DNA from: an uncultured Chloroflexia bacterium
Lineage (GTDB): Bacteria; Chloroflexota; Anaerolineae; CG2-30-64-16
Direction of reading: 5' to 3'
NCBI GenBank assembly: GCA_963810095.1
Contig: CAWEMM010000006.1
Span: 448,001-512,000 of the forward strand
Length of the DNA: 64,000 bases
Shown here: positions 5,606 through 21,951 of the stretch, piece after piece
How the letters are laid out: each line of letters starts with the position of its first letter
Numbering within the stretch: position 1 is the stretch's first letter
The notes under the pieces: generated by a model
Told to the model about the DNA's origin: nothing
The model's database searches: none
Seen by the model: only the letters and a program-made list of their open reading frames with translations
Translations under genes and position numbers: made by a program

Positions 5606-5679
5606 GCCCCCGTAGCTCAGGTGGATAGAGCGAGGCACTCCTAACGCCTAGGCCGAGCGTTCGAGTCGCTCCGGGGGTA
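5606..5679 (+). tRNA. tRNA-Arg (CCT), left copy / attL
   Basis: Cloverleaf: acceptor GCCCCCG/CGGGGGT, D-arm GCTC/GAGC, anticodon loop CTCCTAA, T-loop TTCGAGT; no encoded CCA. Confidence 0.95.
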
Positions 5680-5740
5680 CTTTACTACTACCTGTAGTGT
5701 TTTTCCCTCAGAATTCCCCATATATAGTGGTAGCGCTGTC
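5680..5740. repeat. Left island-end inverted repeat (IRL)
   Basis: CTTTACTACTACCTGTAGTGT...CCCATATATAGTGGTAGCGCTGTC matches the reverse complement of 21807-21867. Confidence 0.8.
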
Positions 5741-5754
5741 CAGGAGTAAGGTGG

Positions 5755-6684
5755 ATGGCGCGCATAGACCTAGGAACTCGTTTAAAAGTAGTTCAATCCC
5801 AACCGGCATCGGACATTCAGCAGGCGGGTGATTTGTTCCTGCTGGACTGCCGCGCCCGGCGTCTCAGCCCCGGCACGCTCGATAGTTACACCCGGCGCAT
5901 GCGTAGTTTTCAAGCTTGGTTCCACGAAAACGGCATCACCCGGCTCGTGGACCTCACGTCTCATCACATTCGCGCCTACCTCGTGCACCTTCAAGATCGC
6001 GGCCTGGATGACGACACGGTCATCACCGAGTACCGCGTGTTGCGGGCCTGGCTGAACTTCTGCGTCCAGGAAGAAATGATCAGCGCCAGCCCCATGAAAA
6101 AAGTACGGTCCCCGCGCTTGCCCAAGGAGATTCTGCCTGCCTTCGCGCCCGAAGATGTACAGAAGCTTCTCGCAGTCTGCCAGACGCCGCGCGACAAGGC
6201 CATCATCCTCTGCCTGCTCGACACAGGCTGCCGGGTGTCGGAGTTCGCAGCCCTCAACATCGGCGATGTGGACGCGCAGAACGGCGCGGTCCAAGTGAAG
6301 CTCGGCAAGGGCCGCAAGGACAGAATCGTATACTTGGGGGCCAAGGCCCTGCGCGCCCTGCTGAAATACCTGCGCACCCGGCCAGACTCCAAGCCCGCCG
6401 ATGCGCTGTGGCTGAGCGAGAAACGCCGGGAGCGACTGACGCTGTGGGGCCTGGAAGAGCTTCTGTCGCGGCTTGGGAAGCGCGCGGGCGTCGAGCACGT
6501 CAACCCGCACACCTTTCGGCGGTCATTCGCGCTGTGGAGCCTGCGCAGTGGCATGGACATCTTTAGCCTACAACGGCTGATGGGCCACGCCGACCTAACC
6601 GTTCTTCACAGGTATCTCGCCTTGGTAGAAGGCGACCTTGAAGCCGCACATCGGCAGCACGGCGCGGTCGACAACATGCTGTAA
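5755..6684 (+). CDS. Tyrosine recombinase/integrase (XerC/D-sized, 309 aa)
   Basis: Catalytic residues intact: TGCRVSE (R), GKGRK (K), PHTFRR (HxxR), LMGH (H), HRYL (Y); N-terminal LSPGTLDSY SAM-like region; AGGAG RBS. Confidence 0.95.
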   Translation: MARIDLGTRLKVVQSQPASDIQQAGDLFLLDCRARRLSPGTLDSYTRRMRSFQAWFHENGITRLVDLTSHHIRAYLVHLQDRGLDDDTVITEYRVLRAWLNFCVQEEMISASPMKKVRSPRLPKEILPAFAPEDVQKLLAVCQTPRDKAIILCLLDTGCRVSEFAALNIGDVDAQNGAVQVKLGKGRKDRIVYLGAKALRALLKYLRTRPDSKPADALWLSEKRRERLTLWGLEELLSRLGKRAGVEHVNPHTFRRSFALWSLRSGMDIFSLQRLMGHADLTVLHRYLALVEGDLEAAHRQHGAVDNML

Positions 6685-7431: not shown

Positions 7432-7618
7432 GTCGGGCCACACGCGTCCTGGTGCCTCAGATTGCGCGCAACCTGCCTCGGCGCGCGCCGCAAAACAGTC
7501 GTACAATAGGAACGCGCAGCAGATGACAAACACTGCTCGCCGCGCATGACGAAGCAGCATGACCGTACCAGAGGTCCTTTCTGATGTTGGAGAGCCTGTA
7601 ACGCCGAGGTATCTGATC
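7432..7618 (+). pseudogene. Decayed integrase 3'-end remnant, copy 1
   Basis: Across frames reads LRAT...QNSRTI...AQQM..HCSPRMTKQHDRT; similar at DNA level to 10456-10612 and 13111-13296. Confidence 0.7.
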
Positions 7619-7619
7619 A

Positions 7620-8411
7620 ATGAAATCGTCTGCTGAGTTGTTGGCCGCGTCGGACGCCAACATGATTGCGTTCTGGTCGGCCTATGGTCGCGGGGCTGGC
7701 TGCACCTCGCAGGTTGCGCCGGGCGTGGTCTGGGTCTATACGGGCATCCCGACCCCGTTGTTCAACTGCGTGCTGCTGTCCGACGCCGGGGCAGCGGATG
7801 TGCAGGCGACTGCGGACGCGGTCCGGGCGAAGATCGATGAGCGGGGCGTACCGGCCATGTGGTGGGTCGGCCCGCAGGCTGGGCAAGACGACGTCGCCCC
7901 GCGGCTGGAGCGGATTGGCCTTGCCCCTGCCGGGGAAGTGCCCGGCATGGCGCTCGACCTGGCGCTGCTGAATGACGCACATGAGGCGCGTCCGGAGTTC
8001 ACAGTCGAGCGCGTCCACGGGACCGTGATGCAAGCGCTGTGGGGGCACACTGCCGGGATCGGGACGGGTTTCCCGGATGAGACCAGCGCCGCGCTGGCAC
8101 AGGTTGAAGCGACCCTGAACGACTCGGAGTATCTGGCGCAGCGCCGCTATATCGGTTACTTGAATGGCGAGCCGGTGGCGACGTCGGCCCTGGTATTGGC
8201 TGCGGGAGTGGCAGGCATCTATGCCGTCGCCACAGTGCCCGCGGCCCGCCGCAGGGGCATTGGTCGGCTGATGACGGTGCTCCCACTACTGGAGGCCAGG
8301 CGGGAAGGTTATCACAGCGGCATCCTCCAGTCGTCGGCGATGGGCTATCCGGTGTACAAGGCGATTGGTTTTGAAGAGGTGAGCCGGTACAGGCTTTATG
8401 CGCAGGCTTAG
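7620..8411 (+). CDS. GNAT family N-acetyltransferase
   Basis: AGIYAVATVPAARRRGIG acetyl-CoA motif; GYPVYKAIGF. Confidence 0.9.
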   Translation: MKSSAELLAASDANMIAFWSAYGRGAGCTSQVAPGVVWVYTGIPTPLFNCVLLSDAGAADVQATADAVRAKIDERGVPAMWWVGPQAGQDDVAPRLERIGLAPAGEVPGMALDLALLNDAHEARPEFTVERVHGTVMQALWGHTAGIGTGFPDETSAALAQVEATLNDSEYLAQRRYIGYLNGEPVATSALVLAAGVAGIYAVATVPAARRRGIGRLMTVLPLLEARREGYHSGILQSSAMGYPVYKAIGFEEVSRYRLYAQA

Positions 8412-8489
8412 TGGATCGCGCCAGGCTTGCGACATCGAGGGCAGCGCGGCCTCAACCCGCGCCTGGGGGAGGCTCGGAGACATCAGCCC

Positions 8490-8790
8490 GCCGGTCGGCC
8501 TGGCACCAGCACCTATACGGTCAGCCTGTCCCTGGTTGTCGAGCCGCTTGTGAAGACCCAGGCGGGTGCCGCGCGCATCACAGCCCGCGCAGCGCGCCCT
8601 GGCCCTGGACTGGCTGTGGGCCAACTACCACGGCAAGGCCAAGTACAGAGACGTCTGGTTCGAGTGGGCAGGCAAGCCGCTGCTCATCGCGTTCGACCCG
8701 ATGACCTTAACGATGCGAGTGTCGGCAACATATCCCATCAGCTACATGATCCGGAACTGGACGGGTCGCCGCGGCGCAGATCGAAGTTGA
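8490..8790 (+). pseudogene. Frameshifted gene fragment, possibly from a glycoside hydrolase-like protein
   Basis: Protein-like segment LDWLWANYHGKAKYRDVWFEWAGKPLLIAFDP with no clean start. Confidence 0.3.
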
Positions 8791-8870
8791 CGCCTCTGAG
8801 GACTGTATGTCGTTGAACGACTTTCGCATGGCCTTCACTTAATTCACATTTTCCATCCCGACGTCCCTCT

Positions 8871-9221
8871 CTACTCTGCTTTATCCGCGGCTCTTATTAT
8901 GGTCTTGGCAGCTTCTCGGTCAACCGATTCCTGATAGATGTCGGCGTAAGTTTTCAAATCTTTGATCAGATCGTCACAGAAAGCCGCCACGTCTCTGCCC
9001 GTCACTTCGAGCACGCCTTTCCCCGCGGCCGCGCCCGCTTCAAAGAGATCAATGATCCCCGAGAGCAAACCCGTCCCCTCGCTTAGCTCTACCGGGCCGA
9101 CCTTGAAGAGATACTGCTGAATCTCCTTGTAGACAATCTGGTAGTCCCGCGGGAGCGCATTGACACGCGCCATGTGCGCTCGCCACTCTTTTTTGCCTTC
9201 GATCATATCTCGTATGCTCAT
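8871..9221 (-). CDS. DUF1048 family protein
   Basis: KKEWRAHMARVNALPRDYQIVYKEIQQYLF, GKGVLEVTGRDVAAFCDDL. Confidence 0.85.
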   Translation of the reverse strand: MSIRDMIEGKKEWRAHMARVNALPRDYQIVYKEIQQYLFKVGPVELSEGTGLLSGIIDLFEAGAAAGKGVLEVTGRDVAAFCDDLIKDLKTYADIYQESVDREAAKTIIRAADKAE

Positions 9222-9230
9222 GCTGTCCTC

Positions 9231-9578
9231 CTACTTGCCCAATTTCCTGGCGACATTGTTGTTCAGCTGCTCGCGCCACTTATCGCGATAGGACTGTGCC
9301 CCTGCTTCGCCAGCGAGCGCAGCACAGAAGCCGCTGATGTCGTCACCCAAGACCTCCTTAACGCTCTGACCCTCCGCCGCCGTTTCTTCGAGCAGGCCAA
9401 GCACACCGTCAAGAATGGGCATGAGGTTGCGACCGGCAAAGTCTGTGTACGGCCAAAGATTGGCGTTGACCTGCACCCATGCCGTTTGATAATCAGGCGG
9501 CAGCTTTTTGGCTCGCGACTCGAAGGTCTTCCATTCCTTCTTCATGTCACTGCCAGTAATCTTGTCCCAGAAGCTCAT
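9231..9578 (-). CDS. DUF1048 family protein
   Basis: MSFWDKITGSDM, RAKKLPPDYQ, EVLGDDISGFC, YRDKWREQLN. Confidence 0.85.
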   Translation of the reverse strand: MSFWDKITGSDMKKEWKTFESRAKKLPPDYQTAWVQVNANLWPYTDFAGRNLMPILDGVLGLLEETAAEGQSVKEVLGDDISGFCAALAGEAGAQSYRDKWREQLNNNVARKLGK

Positions 9579-9904
9579 TGTTTCTTCTCCTTCAACTCCC
9601 TGATTTTTGATGATACAAACCCCCATTTCGTCCAGAACGCGGCGAGTTCCTGCCGCCCCGCCTCGTTAAGCCTGTAGAACTTGCGCGGCGGCCCCATGTC
9701 GGACGGCCGTTTTTCGATATCCACGAGGTTGTTCTTCTCGAGCCGGACCAGGATGGTATAGACCGTCCCATCTACAACGTCCGAGAATCCAAGCGCGTTC
9801 AGCCGCCGGGTGATCTCGTAGCCGTAGATTTCCTCGTGGCTGATGATTTCAAGAACACAGCCCTCCAGCACGCCTTTGAGCATTTCAGTTAGGTTTTCTG
9901 CCAT
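9575..9904 (-). CDS. PadR family transcriptional regulator
   Basis: EMLKGVLEGCVL, YGYEI, GTVYTILVRLE, GPPRKFY; TTGACA-17-TACTTT promoter at ~9965-9993. Confidence 0.92.
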   Translation of the reverse strand: MAENLTEMLKGVLEGCVLEIISHEEIYGYEITRRLNALGFSDVVDGTVYTILVRLEKNNLVDIEKRPSDMGPPRKFYRLNEAGRQELAAFWTKWGFVSSKIRELKEKKQ

Positions 9905-10455
9905 GCAGCTTCACTCCCATGCTATCCTGTATGACCTGTATTGAGTGTGACTTAGTACTGGTATAAAGTAACACAGAATAGCGTGGCTGTCAATGGTTTG
10001 ATCGCCAACATCCGTCATGATAAAGGTTCTCCCACGCGTGCTGGTCAAGCTCCCCCTGGGGGCATTGACTAATACAGGCCATTGCGTGCAATCCCCCCAC
10101 CCTAGTGTCGAGCGCCGCGGGGAGTAGGATCGCTACCTGCCACAGGCCGTGTCCGCAGGCGCTAACTTAGCAGAAGCAGCGCGCCAACCCCTCTCACGTC
10201 ATCCCTTCCCGCACGCCAAGAAGAAGCAGAATAATAAGAACAATCAGAATCCACAGGTTAGGGGGTGTAAGGTTCTGATCACTCTTCTTCTTCTGATCGT
10301 TTTCCACCCGCGGCTGTGGACACCTAGCCGATGTGGCGGGCATGCACGCACAACCGCCGCCCCTCGACAGTGCGCACGAAACGCGGCTGGCTCTCGCTGT
10401 GCAGGTCGTGGCCCAGGGGATCAATCCCATGCCACAGCCGCGGTGGACCTGCGAA

Positions 10456-10612
10456 TCGCCATCATGCTGCGCAGTAAGCTTCACCGCCTGCCTACACATC
10501 GGTGGTACAATCGAGCCTGCACAGCAGATGGCAACCACGGATCGCCGCGCACGACCCGGCTGTATGACCGGACCAATTGCGCGAGCAGCCTGGCTGGATC
10601 GACAAGCTAATT
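10456..10612 (+). pseudogene. Decayed integrase 3'-end remnant, copy 2
   Basis: FTACLHIGGTIEPAQQMA then, after a frameshift, NHGSPRTTRLYDRTN. Confidence 0.8.
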
Positions 10613-10690
10613 ACACTCCGACCGTGAGGGTGAGCGGCTTCAAGGGTGCCAGGTGTATGTCTACCAGCCCATTAAGGGGAAGGTGCGAAC

Positions 10691-11074
10691 ATGGAGACGA
10701 CAACACTGCCCGACCAGCCCGATGGGAAATCACCCGCAGGGGCTGACATCCGCTTCCTGGTGGCTGGCGCAACCGGCAACATGATCCACAGCACCGTCCC
10801 GCCGCGCCAGGTAAACCGGGCGACGGTCCACGCGACGGTAAGCGAGTTCTGGTATGTCTTGGAGGGACGCGGCGAAATCTGGCGCGACAACGGTGTGGCG
10901 AGTTGCGTCACGGCGCTTGTTCCGGGCACCGCCATCGATATTCCTGTCGGGACCGCGTTTCAGTACCGCAACCTCGCGGACACCGAGCTTAAGTTCATTT
11001 GTGTCGCCATGCCGCCGTGGCCCGGCGCTGCCGAAGCGAGCTGTGTGGAAGGTATCTGGCGACCAACCGTATGA
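10691..11074 (+). CDS. Cupin domain protein (mannose-6-phosphate isomerase-like)
   Basis: HATVSEFWYVLEGRGEIW, IPVGTAFQYRN, AMPPWPG. Confidence 0.85.
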   Translation: METTTLPDQPDGKSPAGADIRFLVAGATGNMIHSTVPPRQVNRATVHATVSEFWYVLEGRGEIWRDNGVASCVTALVPGTAIDIPVGTAFQYRNLADTELKFICVAMPPWPGAAEASCVEGIWRPTV

Positions 11075-11189
11075 CCTTCGCGCGCCTACACCGGCGGCTG
11101 AACTTACCAGTGCCTCCGGGTCAACACATGCCCAGTCAATTCAAGAGTCAGTAGTTACGTCGCCTCCACACCCGGTCAACGAGGTGCTT

Positions 11190-11578
11190 ATGCAGATCAA
11201 GTTTGTCAGCATCACTGTAGAAGATCAAGAGCACGCTCTTGACTTCTACACCTCCGTCCTCGCTTCCAGAAGATGGCGGACATACCCACGGGCCAGTTCC
11301 GCTGGCTGACCGTGACCTCGGCCGATGGTATCGCGGGCACGGAACTCGTGCTGGAGCCAGCCGCCTTTCCGCCTGCCCAGGTATACCAGAAGGCTTTGTT
11401 TGAAGCGGGCATCCCAGCGACTGCCTTCATCACGCAAGACATTGCCGCCGAGGTCCAGCGCCTCCAAGCGCGGGGGGTCAAGTTCCGCGGCGAGGCGACA
11501 CATAGGGGACCGATCACGGCGGCGCTATTTGAAGACACTTGCGGAAATCTCATCAATCTCGTTCAGCCGGACGCCTGA
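11190..11578 (+). CDS. VOC/glyoxalase family protein (1-bp frameshift near 11262)
   Basis: MQIKFVSITVEDQEHALDFYTSVL joined to MADIPTGQFRWLTV...FEDTCGNLINL; GAGG RBS. Confidence 0.85.
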
Positions 11579-11621
11579 CCCGCTGTTGGGGGCGGCGTGC
11601 CCCGAAGCTGCACATTAGGGC
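11573..11621 (+). repeat. Degenerate attC-like site
   Basis: GCCTGAC (cf. RYYYAAC, contains the gene stop)...AAGCTGCAC-ATTAGGGC (cf. GTTRRRY), ATG follows at 11628; shorter than canonical attC. Confidence 0.4.
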
Positions 11622-12122
11622 GACCAAATGCTACGCGCCGGTGCGCTTGCCGCAGTGTTGCCCAACCCCCGGCCATCCCTGCGCCTGGCGCTTGCTCTAA
11701 AGGCCCACTTGCGCAAGGCTCCCACCGTAGTAGTACCCAAGGCGCGTCCGGTGCAACCTATGGCAAAAGGCGGGTGGACGACCAGGAAACCCAGCGACGG
11801 CCGCCGCCGGGCAAAGACGGTGATTTCCCGGCATGATCGCGGCTGCCGCCGAGCCAGGGACATGGCAGGCCAGAGACGGCGCGGGGTGGACGGTCCCGGC
11901 GAGGATCGACCGTACGGTCGGGCCGGGCAACATGGATGCGGGCAGGGTTCCCCACGGCCCGACGCTGCCATGACGCCAACCTGCCGACCATAGGCCAACC
12001 TCAGCTACAGTTATCGTGTCTTATATGCAGGAGACATGCCGCGTGCCGGGCGTGTAAATGACACTGGACTCTATGGAAGAGGTCGGCTGGGTCAGCGAAG
12101 CTGGAGTAGGTTAGCACAAACG

Positions 12123-12149
12123 AAAAGGCCGACGTAGCTGAACGTCGGC
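12123..12149 (-). terminator. Intrinsic terminator
   Basis: Minus strand GCCGACGT-TCAGCT-ACGTCGGC followed by CTTTTCGTTT. Confidence 0.65.
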
Positions 12150-12318
12150 AATCAGGTTGGCCCGCGCAGTTGGGCGTGCGGCCGGACGTGTCACGCGCCG
12201 CGGCCCCGCAGGCTCAACTTCGGTACTTCGCTCTGTGGGGGTCAAGCGGTGCAGCACATGCTCACCCATCCAGTCGGACGGGGTCGTCAAGGCAAACGGG
12301 CAACCGTGCTGCCGCGCG

Positions 12319-12600
12319 TCAGACGGCAACCTGATCCGGGGCATAGATGACGACGAACGTGTCCCGTCGGTCAGCAAACCGCACCTCGACAGCCCACGAG
12401 CCGGGTTGCTGATCGGGATGCACGCTGGCAAGTGTCGACTCGGGGAAGGCGGCCAGCAGCCGGGTTAGGCGCGGGTAGAATTCCTGTGGCAACTCCCCCA
12501 GGTTGCTGCCGACCGGTACGTCGTCAGCTGGTCGTGGTGAGGGCAATTCGGCGTGGGGTTGTGCTTCATAATCCGGCGTTATCATCTCGTGTAACCTCAT
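12319..12600 (-). CDS. Hypothetical protein
   Basis: ORF with protein-like composition; no recognised motif; start uncertain. Confidence 0.45.
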   Translation of the reverse strand: MRLHEMITPDYEAQPHAELPSPRPADDVPVGSNLGELPQEFYPRLTRLLAAFPESTLASVHPDQQPGSWAVEVRFADRRDTFVVIYAPDQVAV

Positions 12601-12644
12601 TCTATCCGTCGCAAGCCAAGGCTTGCGCGAGTGGCTCCAGGCTG

Positions 12645-12971
12645 TCAAATAGCCCCTACCGGCCAAGGTTCGCACGCGGCGAACATGACCAGTGCGCGCC
12701 GCCTTGCCTCAGTCTGGAGGATATCGCGCGCAAGGTGGTAGTTGAAACATGCCGACCCAGGGTGCTCCCCCGCCCGCGCCGCAATCGGGCAATCGGCCGG
12801 GCAACTGGGCAAAGCCTCACGCAGCGTCTGGTAGTTTGTGTACTCATCCAAGACCCGCGCCATGACGTGCCGGTATTCGCCCGCCCGGTGAAAATCCTCC
12901 GGTATCCGTTCCACTTGTAGAAGCAAACACAGCCGGATCGCCGTTTCCGTCACTTCGCACACGGTCATCAT
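12645..12971 (-). CDS. Hypothetical Cys-rich protein
   Basis: GGGAG RBS before MMTVCEV; CPADCP...HPGSAC motif. Confidence 0.5.
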   Translation of the reverse strand: MMTVCEVTETAIRLCLLLQVERIPEDFHRAGEYRHVMARVLDEYTNYQTLREALPSCPADCPIAARAGEHPGSACFNYHLARDILQTEARRRALVMFAACEPWPVGAI

Positions 12972-13110
12972 AGCGTCGCTCCCGAGAGGGGGAACATCTA
13001 CCCCCACCATCCAATCGTACGCCCGGCTGTCAAGCGACATTGCGTGAGGCATTGCCCGCAGAACGGTCGACGGCCCGCACCGCGTGGTGCACCCCCCCGA
13101 CAGCAGGTGA

Positions 13111-13296
13111 GCCGGAACACCGCACACGACCTGCTGCCAAACATTCCGCGCAACTTGCAGCACCCCCGGCCTCAAAATAGTCGTACAATTGGAGCGTGCA
13201 GCAGAGCACGGACAACGGTCGCCGGGCACGACCACGCTGTATGACCGCATCAGCAACGCCATGAGCCTGGATGAGATCGAGCGCATGCTTATTCAG
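13111..13296 (+). pseudogene. Decayed integrase 3'-end remnant, copy 3
   Basis: One frame reads AGTPHTTCCQTFRAT...SPGTTTLYDRISNAMSLDEIERMLI, matching the box II-to-C-terminus pattern CCHTFRATG...SPRTTKLYDR...SLDEIERI. Confidence 0.85.
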
Positions 13297-13341
13297 GCAG
13301 CAGAATCGCGATGCCAAAGAACCGCCGGTGGGAGGTCAAGT

Positions 13342-13666
13342 ATGACTGAATCGATGCCACGCATTAGCAACGCTTTCCAAACCTTAATGAGCGATGCGCC
13401 GCACCACGCCCGGGCGTGTTGCGGCATGGTACAAGGGCCTCGCCCAAGCCAGCGCCCTGGATGGGAAAACCGCCGCTTTATGCTACCTGGCGGTGTTGGC
13501 GGCCCTGCGGCTGGAGAGCGGCATCCCCTTTCACGTTCAGGCCGCCAAGCGGGCAGGCGCAACCCGCGCGGAAGTCATTAGCGCCGTTCTGATCGGCTTG
13601 CCTGCGGCCGGACATGGCGTGACGCAGGTCCTGCCGACGGCGCTCGCCGCTTTCGATACGGATTGA
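13342..13666 (+). CDS. Carboxymuconolactone decarboxylase/AhpD family protein (frameshift near 13437)
   Basis: ISNAFQTLMSDAP joined to ASALDGKTAALCYLAVLAALRLESGIPFHVQAAKRAGATRAEV; GGGAGG RBS. Confidence 0.8.
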
Positions 13667-14699: not shown

Positions 14700-14869
14700 C
14701 GCGCCACGGTGTCCATCGTGGCCCAACGTGTAGGGCCACCTAAGCCATGGAGTCTCACACGCGTGGCCGCTGCCGAGGGTGTGCGTGCATCACCATGGCG
14801 TGCACTGTGCGATAATGAGTAGTTAGCTGGACTCACACTCACCATGACTACCAGGAAAGGAGAAGTCGC

Positions 14870-15502
14870 ATGACCTTGATCGCAATCAACGTACTGCTTG
14901 ATCCAGATGCCGCCACGGTCGAGCGGGCACAGGCGACGAACGCCCGGCTACGCGAGGACTATCCCGATGGTTTCGCCCTCGACGCCAACCACGCGCCGCA
15001 CATCACCCTGCTCCAGCGGTTTGTGCGGACGGCGGACCTTGACTGGGTCGCGCATGCTGTGGCCGAAGTGCTGCGCACAGAGCAGTCGATGAACTGGGAG
15101 AGCCATGCGACCGGCTACTATGACCTGGCCTACAAGAATCTCGGATTGGTGGGCATCGTCATCGAACCGACCGAGGATTTGCGGCGACTTCAGCAGAGGA
15201 TCATCGACGCCGTCGCCCCGTTCGCCGTGGAGAAGGGGACAGCCGAGGCCTTTGCCCCCCGCCCCGACGGCGCAGCGATCAGTCAGCCGACAGTGGACTA
15301 CGTGAACAACTTCGTCGGCACCCGCACCGGCGTGAACTACCACCCGCATTTGACCGTCGGCATAGGAACCCGCGGCTTCGTGGACGCTCTGAAAGCGGAG
15401 CCATTCCAGGCCTTTACCGTCCGGGCAGTATCCGTGAGCCTCTACCAGGTAGGGGATTACGGTGTGGCACAAAGGAAGCTCTATGACCTCCACCGTTGCT
15501 GA
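14870..15502 (+). CDS. 2H phosphoesterase (2'-5' RNA ligase-like) protein
   Basis: Two HxT motifs: PHITL and PHLTV; AAGGAG RBS. Confidence 0.8.
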   Translation: MTLIAINVLLDPDAATVERAQATNARLREDYPDGFALDANHAPHITLLQRFVRTADLDWVAHAVAEVLRTEQSMNWESHATGYYDLAYKNLGLVGIVIEPTEDLRRLQQRIIDAVAPFAVEKGTAEAFAPRPDGAAISQPTVDYVNNFVGTRTGVNYHPHLTVGIGTRGFVDALKAEPFQAFTVRAVSVSLYQVGDYGVAQRKLYDLHRC

Positions 15503-16424: not shown

Positions 16425-16689
16425 AGGTAACTCGTGGCAGGTCGACTTCGGTTCTGCCAGCCTACAACGGCCATAGACATCGACCGCCGAAGTGTTGCGC
16501 TGGTCGCCTGATGAAGCCTGCGCCGCAGCGCGCGGTTCAATACGCACTTAGGGACGTCGAGCGTTTGTCGCCCGCGAAGGATCGGCGCGCGCTTCTTGGC
16601 TGAAGCTGAGCGACGGACACGGTCGGAAGGGGCCGCGAGTGAATGTATCCGTCTGTAGAACAACTCGGCCCCTTGCGCAGGAGTCGGCC

Positions 16690-17220
16690 ATGCCCGCACC
16701 CGTTCTTGTCCTGCCCGGCCTCGGCAACTCGGGGCCGCTGCACTGGCAATCCATCTGGGAACAGGCACATCCCGAATTTGTACGCGTCCAACAGCGCGAT
16801 TGGGATAACCCGGTTTGCCCAGAGTGGGTTGCCGCCATCGAGGCAGCCGTGCAGCGTGCCGGGCCGGATGTTGTGCTGGTCGCACACAGCCTCGCCTGTT
16901 TGGCCGTCGCCCATTGGTCGGCCAGCCCGCATTCACCCATTAAGGCCGCGCTGCTGGTTGCAGTACCCGACCCCGACTGCCCCGAGTATCCCGGGCACCT
17001 GCTTGGTTTCTCCAAGCCCCCCACCGAGCAGTTCACCTTTCCCGCCGTCGCCGTCGTCAGCGCCGATGATCCATATAGCACACCGGAACACGCCGAGCAG
17101 CTTGCGGCCGCTTGGGGCTGTCGTGTCGTTCGTGTCGGTGCTTACGGCCACATCAACGCCAGCAGCGGCCTTGGCGCTTGGGCCGAGGGTTATGCGTTGC
17201 TGGACCATTTGCGGAGCTAA
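16690..17220 (+). CDS. RBBP9/YdeN family alpha/beta hydrolase
   Basis: PGLGNSGPLHWQ, VAHSLAC nucleophile elbow, SADDPY, GHINASSG. Confidence 0.9.
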   Translation: MPAPVLVLPGLGNSGPLHWQSIWEQAHPEFVRVQQRDWDNPVCPEWVAAIEAAVQRAGPDVVLVAHSLACLAVAHWSASPHSPIKAALLVAVPDPDCPEYPGHLLGFSKPPTEQFTFPAVAVVSADDPYSTPEHAEQLAAAWGCRVVRVGAYGHINASSGLGAWAEGYALLDHLRS

Positions 17221-17311
17221 CCCTTCGTTCGGGGCGGAGGTGCCCGCGGTTGCGGTTCTCGGTTGGGAGAGGGCATCGCCGCCGAGCAGTCCCCTGACTC
17301 CAACGTGAGAC
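17215..17311 (+). repeat. Degenerate attC-like site (97 bp)
   Basis: AGCTAAC (contains the TAA stop) CCTTCGTTCGGGG...GTGCCC/GGGCAT...CCCCTGACTCCAAC-GTGAGAC (one change from GTTAGAC). Confidence 0.55.
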
Positions 17312-21867: not shown

Positions 21868-21941
21868 GCCCCCGTAGCTCAGGTGGATAGAGCGAGGCAC
21901 TCCTAACGCCTAGGCCGAGCGTTCGAGTCGCTCCGGGGGTA
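21868..21941 (+). tRNA. tRNA-Arg (CCT), right copy / attR
   Basis: Identical to 5606-5679. Confidence 0.95.
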
Positions 21942-21951
21942 CTGGTTCGAT

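Follow-up and report, generated by a model that had tools for sequence, protein, structure and literature searches.

Gene cassettes with attC sites, entry at an attI-type site and arrays on one strand characterise integrons, including the group with an inverted integrase, and the attC-site clusters without an integron-integrase (CALINs; Cury et al. 2016, PMC4889954). According to that survey, the insertion specific to the integron integrase IntI is tied to attC recognition, and 95% of CALINs have no intI remnants nearby. Here we describe a small cassette-bearing unit in relatives of an uncultured Chloroflexia bacterium, together with its probable relics in a 64,000-nucleotide (nt) stretch of that bacterium's genome (assembly GCA_963810095.1, contig CAWEMM010000006.1, positions 448,001 to 512,000, forward strand; hereafter the window). 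The unit shares the attC cassettes, attI-type entry and same-strand array of integrons; a candidate promoter may likewise lie inside its recombinase gene, which points toward the array as in inverted integrons (PMC4889954). It differs from integrons (PMC4889954) in that its tyrosine recombinase (YR) is not IntI, scoring far below the TIGR02249 cut-off, and has a dif-like site of its own; moreover, the unit has one or few cassettes and a conserved right end, and it stacks.

Other systems resemble the unit in part. Defective class 1 integrons flanked by integron mobilisation units (IMUs) or MITEs, miniature transposable elements with inverted repeats (PMC3575428), are likewise integron fragments without a working IntI, moved by a second system at their ends, but in the unit neither a target duplication nor a pair of MITEs as terminal inverted repeats was seen, arms of YR type with a 6-nt spacer form the ends, and the truncated gene is not intI1. 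IS91 elements with a tyrosine recombinase and insertion sequence common regions (ISCRs), of which ISCR28 is reported to adjoin attC sites (bioRxiv 10.1101/542381, PMC12772301), are related in that such elements lie across the unit's upstream site (S) in four loci and have a similar end arm, but the unit encodes no Y2 transposase and terIS-type junctions were not seen. The strand-biased circularizing integrative elements (SEs; bioRxiv 10.1101/2021.06.22.449512) also combine YR-borne cargo with imperfect arms and a variable 6-bp spacer, but have four core genes and are larger, and the available part of that report describes no attI/attC cargo platform. Plasmid-borne XerC/D-like resolvases belong to the same recombinase family at 53-66% identity, and members in other phyla have a single upstream palindromic site; these lack the right end and the -10 motif and show no bias in cargo orientation. 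We found no description of the unit in the openly accessible literature searched, and a search by site and protein motifs returned no papers. By analogy, it may be an undescribed variant that works like an integron platform borne by another mobile system and has the look of an inverted integron. The IntI test nevertheless shows the unit not to be an integron, nor is the window a CALIN by the attC test: a CALIN has at least two detectable attC sites without a nearby intI, and the window holds two decayed candidates only.

The relics centre on three decayed YR gene 3' ends (stumps A, B and C), each spanning box II to the stop.

7441..7616, + strand: stump A, the most decayed, 73% to the intact gene; -10 hexamer at 7502-7507, TG extension lost
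10463..10610, + strand: stump B, with an intact extended -10 motif at 10503-10511; its ortholog in the related genome G001 lies with a cupin gene at 92%
13106..13298, + strand: stump C, 80% to the intact gene; -10 hexamer at 13184-13189, TG extension lost

We consider these stumps to be, more likely than not, dead modules of a small YR-borne carrier of integron cassettes, surviving as relics in a tRNA-Arg island. The unit, as seen in intact relatives, reads S site, YR gene, attI-like site, attC cassette or cassettes and conserved right end. Its cassettes would be loaded by a true IntI acting in trans, which we infer from the absence of the IntI insertion in the YR and from the likeness of the attI-like site to the attI of the bacterial family's own integrons. 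Stacking of units would come about through a site-specific reaction that joins the right-end arm to dif-like sites, for which either the YR or IS91-linked enzymes across S may be the catalyst. The YR gene would then be deleted from its 5' side, with the last 100-250 nt kept because selected cargo lies next to them and they often contain a candidate extended -10 motif that may act as a Pc promoter.

Alignment of the three segments confirmed what the first-pass annotation, made from the letters alone, had described: all are on the + strand and alignable, with the common core first noted. Their reading as YR C-terminus remnants unlike the island's own integrase also held. With the DNA of an intact YR gene (L003) from a same-genus genome (G002) as query, the matches were 13106-13298 (E 7e-23), 10463-10602 (E 5e-16) and 7441-7583 (E 2e-8), no other window match was found at E<=1, and the island integrase is only 23% identical to the stump family. 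The stumps are homologous to the last 160-190 nt of the 945-nt gene. That all three cover the same interval was right as to box II and the stop, but their starts differ (A nt 770, B nt 788, C nt 752); the stop remnant of A ends at 7616. Letters at 10372-10621 (0 differences) and 7524-7744 (1 difference) were reproduced by short-read contigs of run X2, which may be related to the source sample, so the decay of A and B is not an assembly error. A profile built from 18 clean 3' ends gave exactly four copies in the 6.13-Mb source genome (G000) at E<=3e-6, with the next match at E 0.13. The fourth copy lies on contig C9 (43366-43310), before a 153-codon open reading frame (ORF). No intact YR member was found in G000, which is 88.5% complete. 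In a 150-nt tree of 43 copies, A and C were sisters (SH-aLRT 87, UFBoot 92) and had four rare changes in common, a number that ranks second among 465 pairs. Long-branch attraction may play a part, but it is plausible that they were duplicated or converted after they had decayed.

Intact relatives display the whole layout. In G002 (locus L022) the order is an IS91-type Y2 and YR pointing away, S, the YR gene, a post-gene region of ~95 nt ending in a GTT core (the post region), a DUF6326 gene, a canonical attC and the right end, a conserved segment of ~90 nt that finishes in a 13-nt arm; after it come a 6-nt spacer and another conserved block. This order recurred on one strand across genomes and 44 metagenome contigs, the contigs having been chosen by 3' motif. 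The attC sites of the relatives had 93.8% of cells paired and covariation above all 500 shuffles, resembled those of the IntI integrons of the bacterial family, and had further matches outside the training set; the first-pass suggestion of an array without attC was thus not borne out for the intact relatives. Cassette entry at G/TT, as at an attI, was seen in the relatives, the window holding a remnant only: in 4 of 13 attC-bearing loci the cassette started with an 8-12-nt perfect complement of its own R'', exactly at the post GTT, and the other nine had no R''-complement run of 8 or more there. The constant right-end start followed attC in 10/13 loci. With a profile of type-II post regions, two true IntI integrons from the bacterial family gave matches at their attI position (E 3e-4 to 4e-3). 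In loci with type-II regions (L064/L120, L130, L084, L134 and L100), up to three attI-like sites occur ~75 nt apart, and which of them the cassettes follow varies between copies.

The right-end 13-mer occurred in 25 different contexts, each time on the strand of the YR gene, and in none of 80 loci of other phyla. An unbiased search with the right-end block gave 13 matches in 6/37 genomes of the bacterial family, nine of them near known YR pieces and two of the other four with an adjacent stump; no attC fold was found in the block behind the right-end arm. At L263:4142-4235 the block occurs without a unit and with its own inverted arm in front, a candidate empty target site. Two loci (L118 and L127) held hybrid junctions in which the right-end arm is joined via the S spacer to the S right arm before a second YR, the junction that site-specific stacking would be expected to leave. 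In L112, two tandem modules without a YR have one common junction near codon 271, which recurs in L028, L025 and L108/L131, and the junction of this subfamily adjoins a separate conserved site. IS91-type YR genes diverge across S in four loci (L022, L118, L139 and L187), with a Y2 in L022 and L187, the loci whose sequence extends far enough. The far end of the IS91-type element at L022:6826-9235 is a junction of arm, 6-nt spacer and S-like arm, which suggests that IS91-type elements with a YR insert at dif-like sites.

Remnants of the same parts were found in the window behind B and further downstream.

11106..11160, + strand: type-I attI-like post remnant, found by profile and ending in a GTT core at 11154 (by eye)
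11190..11578, + strand: glyoxalase/VOC cassette gene, frameshifted near 11261 (Pfam on 11273-11575)
11573..11620, + strand: decayed attC-like hairpin at the expected position, seen by eye only and missed by the attC covariance model
11619..11700, + strand: conserved right-end segment (Rleft) with a decayed terminal arm, found by the relatives-trained profile and 75% to L022 by blastn
14811..14827, + strand: candidate attI-like tail before a 2'-5' RNA-ligase-like gene at 14870-15502 (E 11, not significant)
16517..16609, + strand: second right-end junction, where the terminal arm and a 6-nt spacer precede a conserved downstream block (Rright)
16690..17220, + strand: serine hydrolase cassette gene (Pfam)
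17214..17305, + strand: candidate decayed attC, its coordinates mapped by offset

Behind B the order is cupin, post remnant, glyoxalase gene and right end. The post remnant was the best match genome-wide (E 0.13; E 0.005 in a small set). The right-end profile, trained on relatives only, had its best match of the genome at 11619-11693 (E 6e-7), and at E<1 there were only two right-end matches in G000, 1.0 kb behind B and 0.5 kb behind the C9 stump, a result independent of training. The second junction at 16517-16609, likewise found by a profile from relatives only, was also the best of the genome (E 1.6e-4; next 1.3). The attC model scored the G001 homolog of 17214-17305 at 22 bits (E 0.04) and did not detect the window copy. 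In G001 the serine hydrolase gene lies behind the stump C ortholog, which is fused to a type-II attI-like post tail, and an attC-like stretch follows the cupin (by eye). Since the G001 island pairs B with the cupin but the C ortholog with the serine hydrolase, modules have been rearranged. No Y2 transposase was found among the scanned island ORFs. At the glyoxalase frameshift the X6 contig carries one extra base and X1 agrees with the window. One X6 contig (depth 3.7) joins 11611, the attC-like end of the glyoxalase cassette, back to 10661 in the cupin leader, possibly a cassette re-ordering or a circle and too weak to count. On C9 (43366-42713, - strand), the stump has kept its extended -10 motif and is followed first by the 153-codon gene and then by a right end; the end of this gene also stands before a right end in G002 (L027).

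The idea of modules made of a recombinase end and cargo was borne out by 3' bias, cargo enrichment and tandem arrays. DNA searches gave 27 matches in 12/37 genomes of the bacterial family, two of them intact genes; 20 of the 25 partial matches lay wholly in the last 250 nt, two spanned this boundary and three were 5'-only. There is a real risk of detection bias, as the island integrase also gives C-terminal-biased DNA matches in distant relatives; against this, similarity is even over the length of the gene in intact lineage copies (74-93% per 105 nt), and junctions were inspected. A class-wide DNA search of 401 genomes, with two candidates scored in each, added little. Small same-strand genes (GNAT, cupin and CMD by Pfam) follow the window stumps, as first noted, and across the lineage the Pfam-confirmed ORFs behind 45 ends were on the same strand in 24 cases, from 18 families, and on the opposite strand in five (binomial p 5e-4, with kin not independent). 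Downstream genes in other phyla had no preferred strand (14:14; 24:5 versus 14:14, Fisher p 0.012), in a control with 104/146 ORFs scanned and a stricter E-value. Tandem stumps occurred at eight loci including the window. A fixed 5' breakpoint was not found: 47 truncated pieces began anywhere from nt 107 to 902 (median 770), with scatter also among 19 pieces at >=90% identity, and the 3' ends of stumps proved clipped too when junctions were inspected. The metagenome part of the breakpoint set was chosen by 3' motif, and the counts of breakpoints, arrays, and right ends and post regions behind YR ends were made after removal of four near-duplicates and of 15 metagenome loci that were assigned to the other-phylum type. 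Internal deletions were seen on both sides of the tail, which fits deletion from which the cargo side was protected.

An extended -10 motif, poor in GC, lies across codons 267-270 in the window's lineage only. Its hexamer (TACAAT/TATAAT) was present in 13/16 clean and 16/24 decayed lineage copies and in 0/75 copies from other phyla, and the perfect TATAAT in 4/24 decayed versus 0/16 clean copies. This suggests a candidate Pc-like promoter, which may, though unproven, explain why the tail is retained.

The recombinase itself belongs to a family spread over at least 593 genomic stretches. The intact relative has a complete set of R-K-H-R-H-Y catalytic residues and lacks the IntI-specific insertion near patch III. 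It reached no NCBIfam cut-off (TIGR02249 35 bits, cut-off 265), and a PDB search returned only distant XerA, XerD and IntI4. The TnpR subgroup (PMC8138268) was ruled out, as the Pfam scan showed no DUF3701 domain. In other phyla a single upstream palindromic site S, with two arms and a 6-nt spacer, occurred in 46/80 loci, as would be expected of a resolvase-like enzyme.

Several results weigh against a YR-borne cassette carrier. No significant attC was found in the window by a hairpin script or an unfiltered covariance model (best island match E 0.47), nor in a whole-genome attC scan of G000, and G000 yielded neither an S-site remnant nor IntI. Stump A has neither a right end nor a post region downstream. 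Among the relatives, a right end lay within 3 kb behind 14/32 YR ends, leaving 18 without, and a post region within 120 nt of 17/48 ends, leaving 31 without; type-I post regions matched no attI in 10 IntI loci, and two right-end block matches had no stump. The candidate promoter is not the whole answer, because 14/47 truncated pieces begin downstream of the -10 motif, stumps A and C lack the TG extension, and a sigma-70 scan found no promoter at the stumps and no -35. In addition, many loci are kin, and the loci that were counted had also served to build the profiles.

The first-pass annotation had taken the YR 3' end itself for the attachment site, duplicated at each insertion to build an array without attC. 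Strong 3' bias, tandem stumps, the single subfamily junction near codon 271 and the sister relation of A and C all speak for this, but breakpoints range over 800 nt even in young copies, both ends are clipped, and the cassettes carry canonical attC. Because the 5' breakpoints scatter and the recombination sites (S, attI-like and right end) are separate, we do not regard the stump as a duplicated attachment site and rate this explanation as highly improbable. Variable truncation would also arise by one-ended rolling-circle capture, in which the right end serves as a non-autonomous oriIS-like end for an IS91-type Y2 and copying upstream through cassette and YR stops at different points. Short lengths prevail even in young copies, and the ends downstream of Y2 in L022, L244 and L187 have an arm like the right-end arm (by eye); we keep this as an unlikely candidate because IS91-type genes lie across S in four loci, two with Y2, with a similar end arm. 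Set against it, the right-end profile matched no IS91 end at E<0.05, and stump 5' junctions lack the target's left arm, several of them abutting the downstream block of a previous unit or showing internal deletions.

An independent integron, with the YR as the cassette integrase and its array behind the gene, would account for the layout like that of inverted integrons, the candidate Pc inside the gene, the complete catalytic residues and the lack of IntI over the cut-off in G000, G001 and G002. We think this rather improbable, given a recombinase without the insertion tied to attC recognition (PMC4889954), its own 6-nt-spacer dif-like palindrome in 46/80 other-phyla loci, where cargo bias is absent, and IntI in 9/37 genomes of the bacterial family. 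The fuller version, a second and independently evolved integron whose XerC-like YR loads attC cassettes behind its gene and moves and stacks units via the dif-like site, is similarly doubtful. The last alternative is plain debris of a plasmid-type resolvase that repeatedly inserted into decaying integron arrays, its 3' bias due to conservation and no unit of its own involved. The gene is whole in 131 of 134 plasmid records, the island integrase shows the same C-terminal bias in distant relatives, and in the Acidobacteriota genome G426 broken pieces come from all gene parts and both strands, decay being more even there than in the window's lineage. Random debris was also what the first-pass annotation had said would overturn its modules, but the last quarter of the gene accounts for 20/25 pieces, and cargo is enriched; even similarity along intact lineage copies, inspected junctions and four features fixed in order and strand likewise make this account quite improbable. 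The G426 pieces form a dense cluster on C1 at 4.90-4.98 Mb (L269-L271), with two intact and many broken copies in both orientations.

If the carrier is real, it would add a further cassette vehicle, ~2 kb long and equipped with a recombinase other than IntI, an attI-type site of its own and a candidate promoter inside. Surveys based on intI would miss it; it would be one source of attC clusters that lack intI remnants, and would account for one class of the short 'integrase pseudogene' tails that annotations contain. Its S, post site and right end would also be defined substrates, both for a widespread family of recombinases and for the IS91-linked ones, which are closely related to IntI. Only dead copies are present in the window itself.

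The host island occupies 16.3 kb between two identical tRNA-Arg genes and carries the following further features.

5606..5681, + strand: tRNA-Arg(CCT), left copy of the identical 76-nt direct repeat bounding the island
5755..6684, + strand: the island's own tyrosine integrase, of an unrelated clade
7620..8411, + strand: GNAT acetyltransferase, cargo behind A (Pfam E 2e-5)
10691..11074, + strand: cupin, cargo behind B (Pfam)
13342..13666, + strand: CMD-family gene, frameshifted, cargo behind C (Pfam)
21868..21943, + strand: tRNA-Arg(CCT), right copy

The gaps from stump to cargo are about 3 nt for A, 80 for B and 45 for C. An Rfam scan returned tRNAs only. Its integrase adjoins a tDNA and a direct repeat closes its far end, which marks it as a tRNA-integrated island; the repeat is the entire tRNA-Arg gene, not a fragment. 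A smaller island occupies the same tRNA-Arg in G007, with the same subtilase downstream, and in G001 a rearranged homologous island is followed by part of a similar island integrase. On a metagenome contig (L137:728-1612) a stump directly adjoins tRNA-Arg and a homolog of the island integrase. A low-GC stretch at 8871-9904 (- strand) encodes a PadR regulator and two DUF1048 genes, opposite in direction to the modules.

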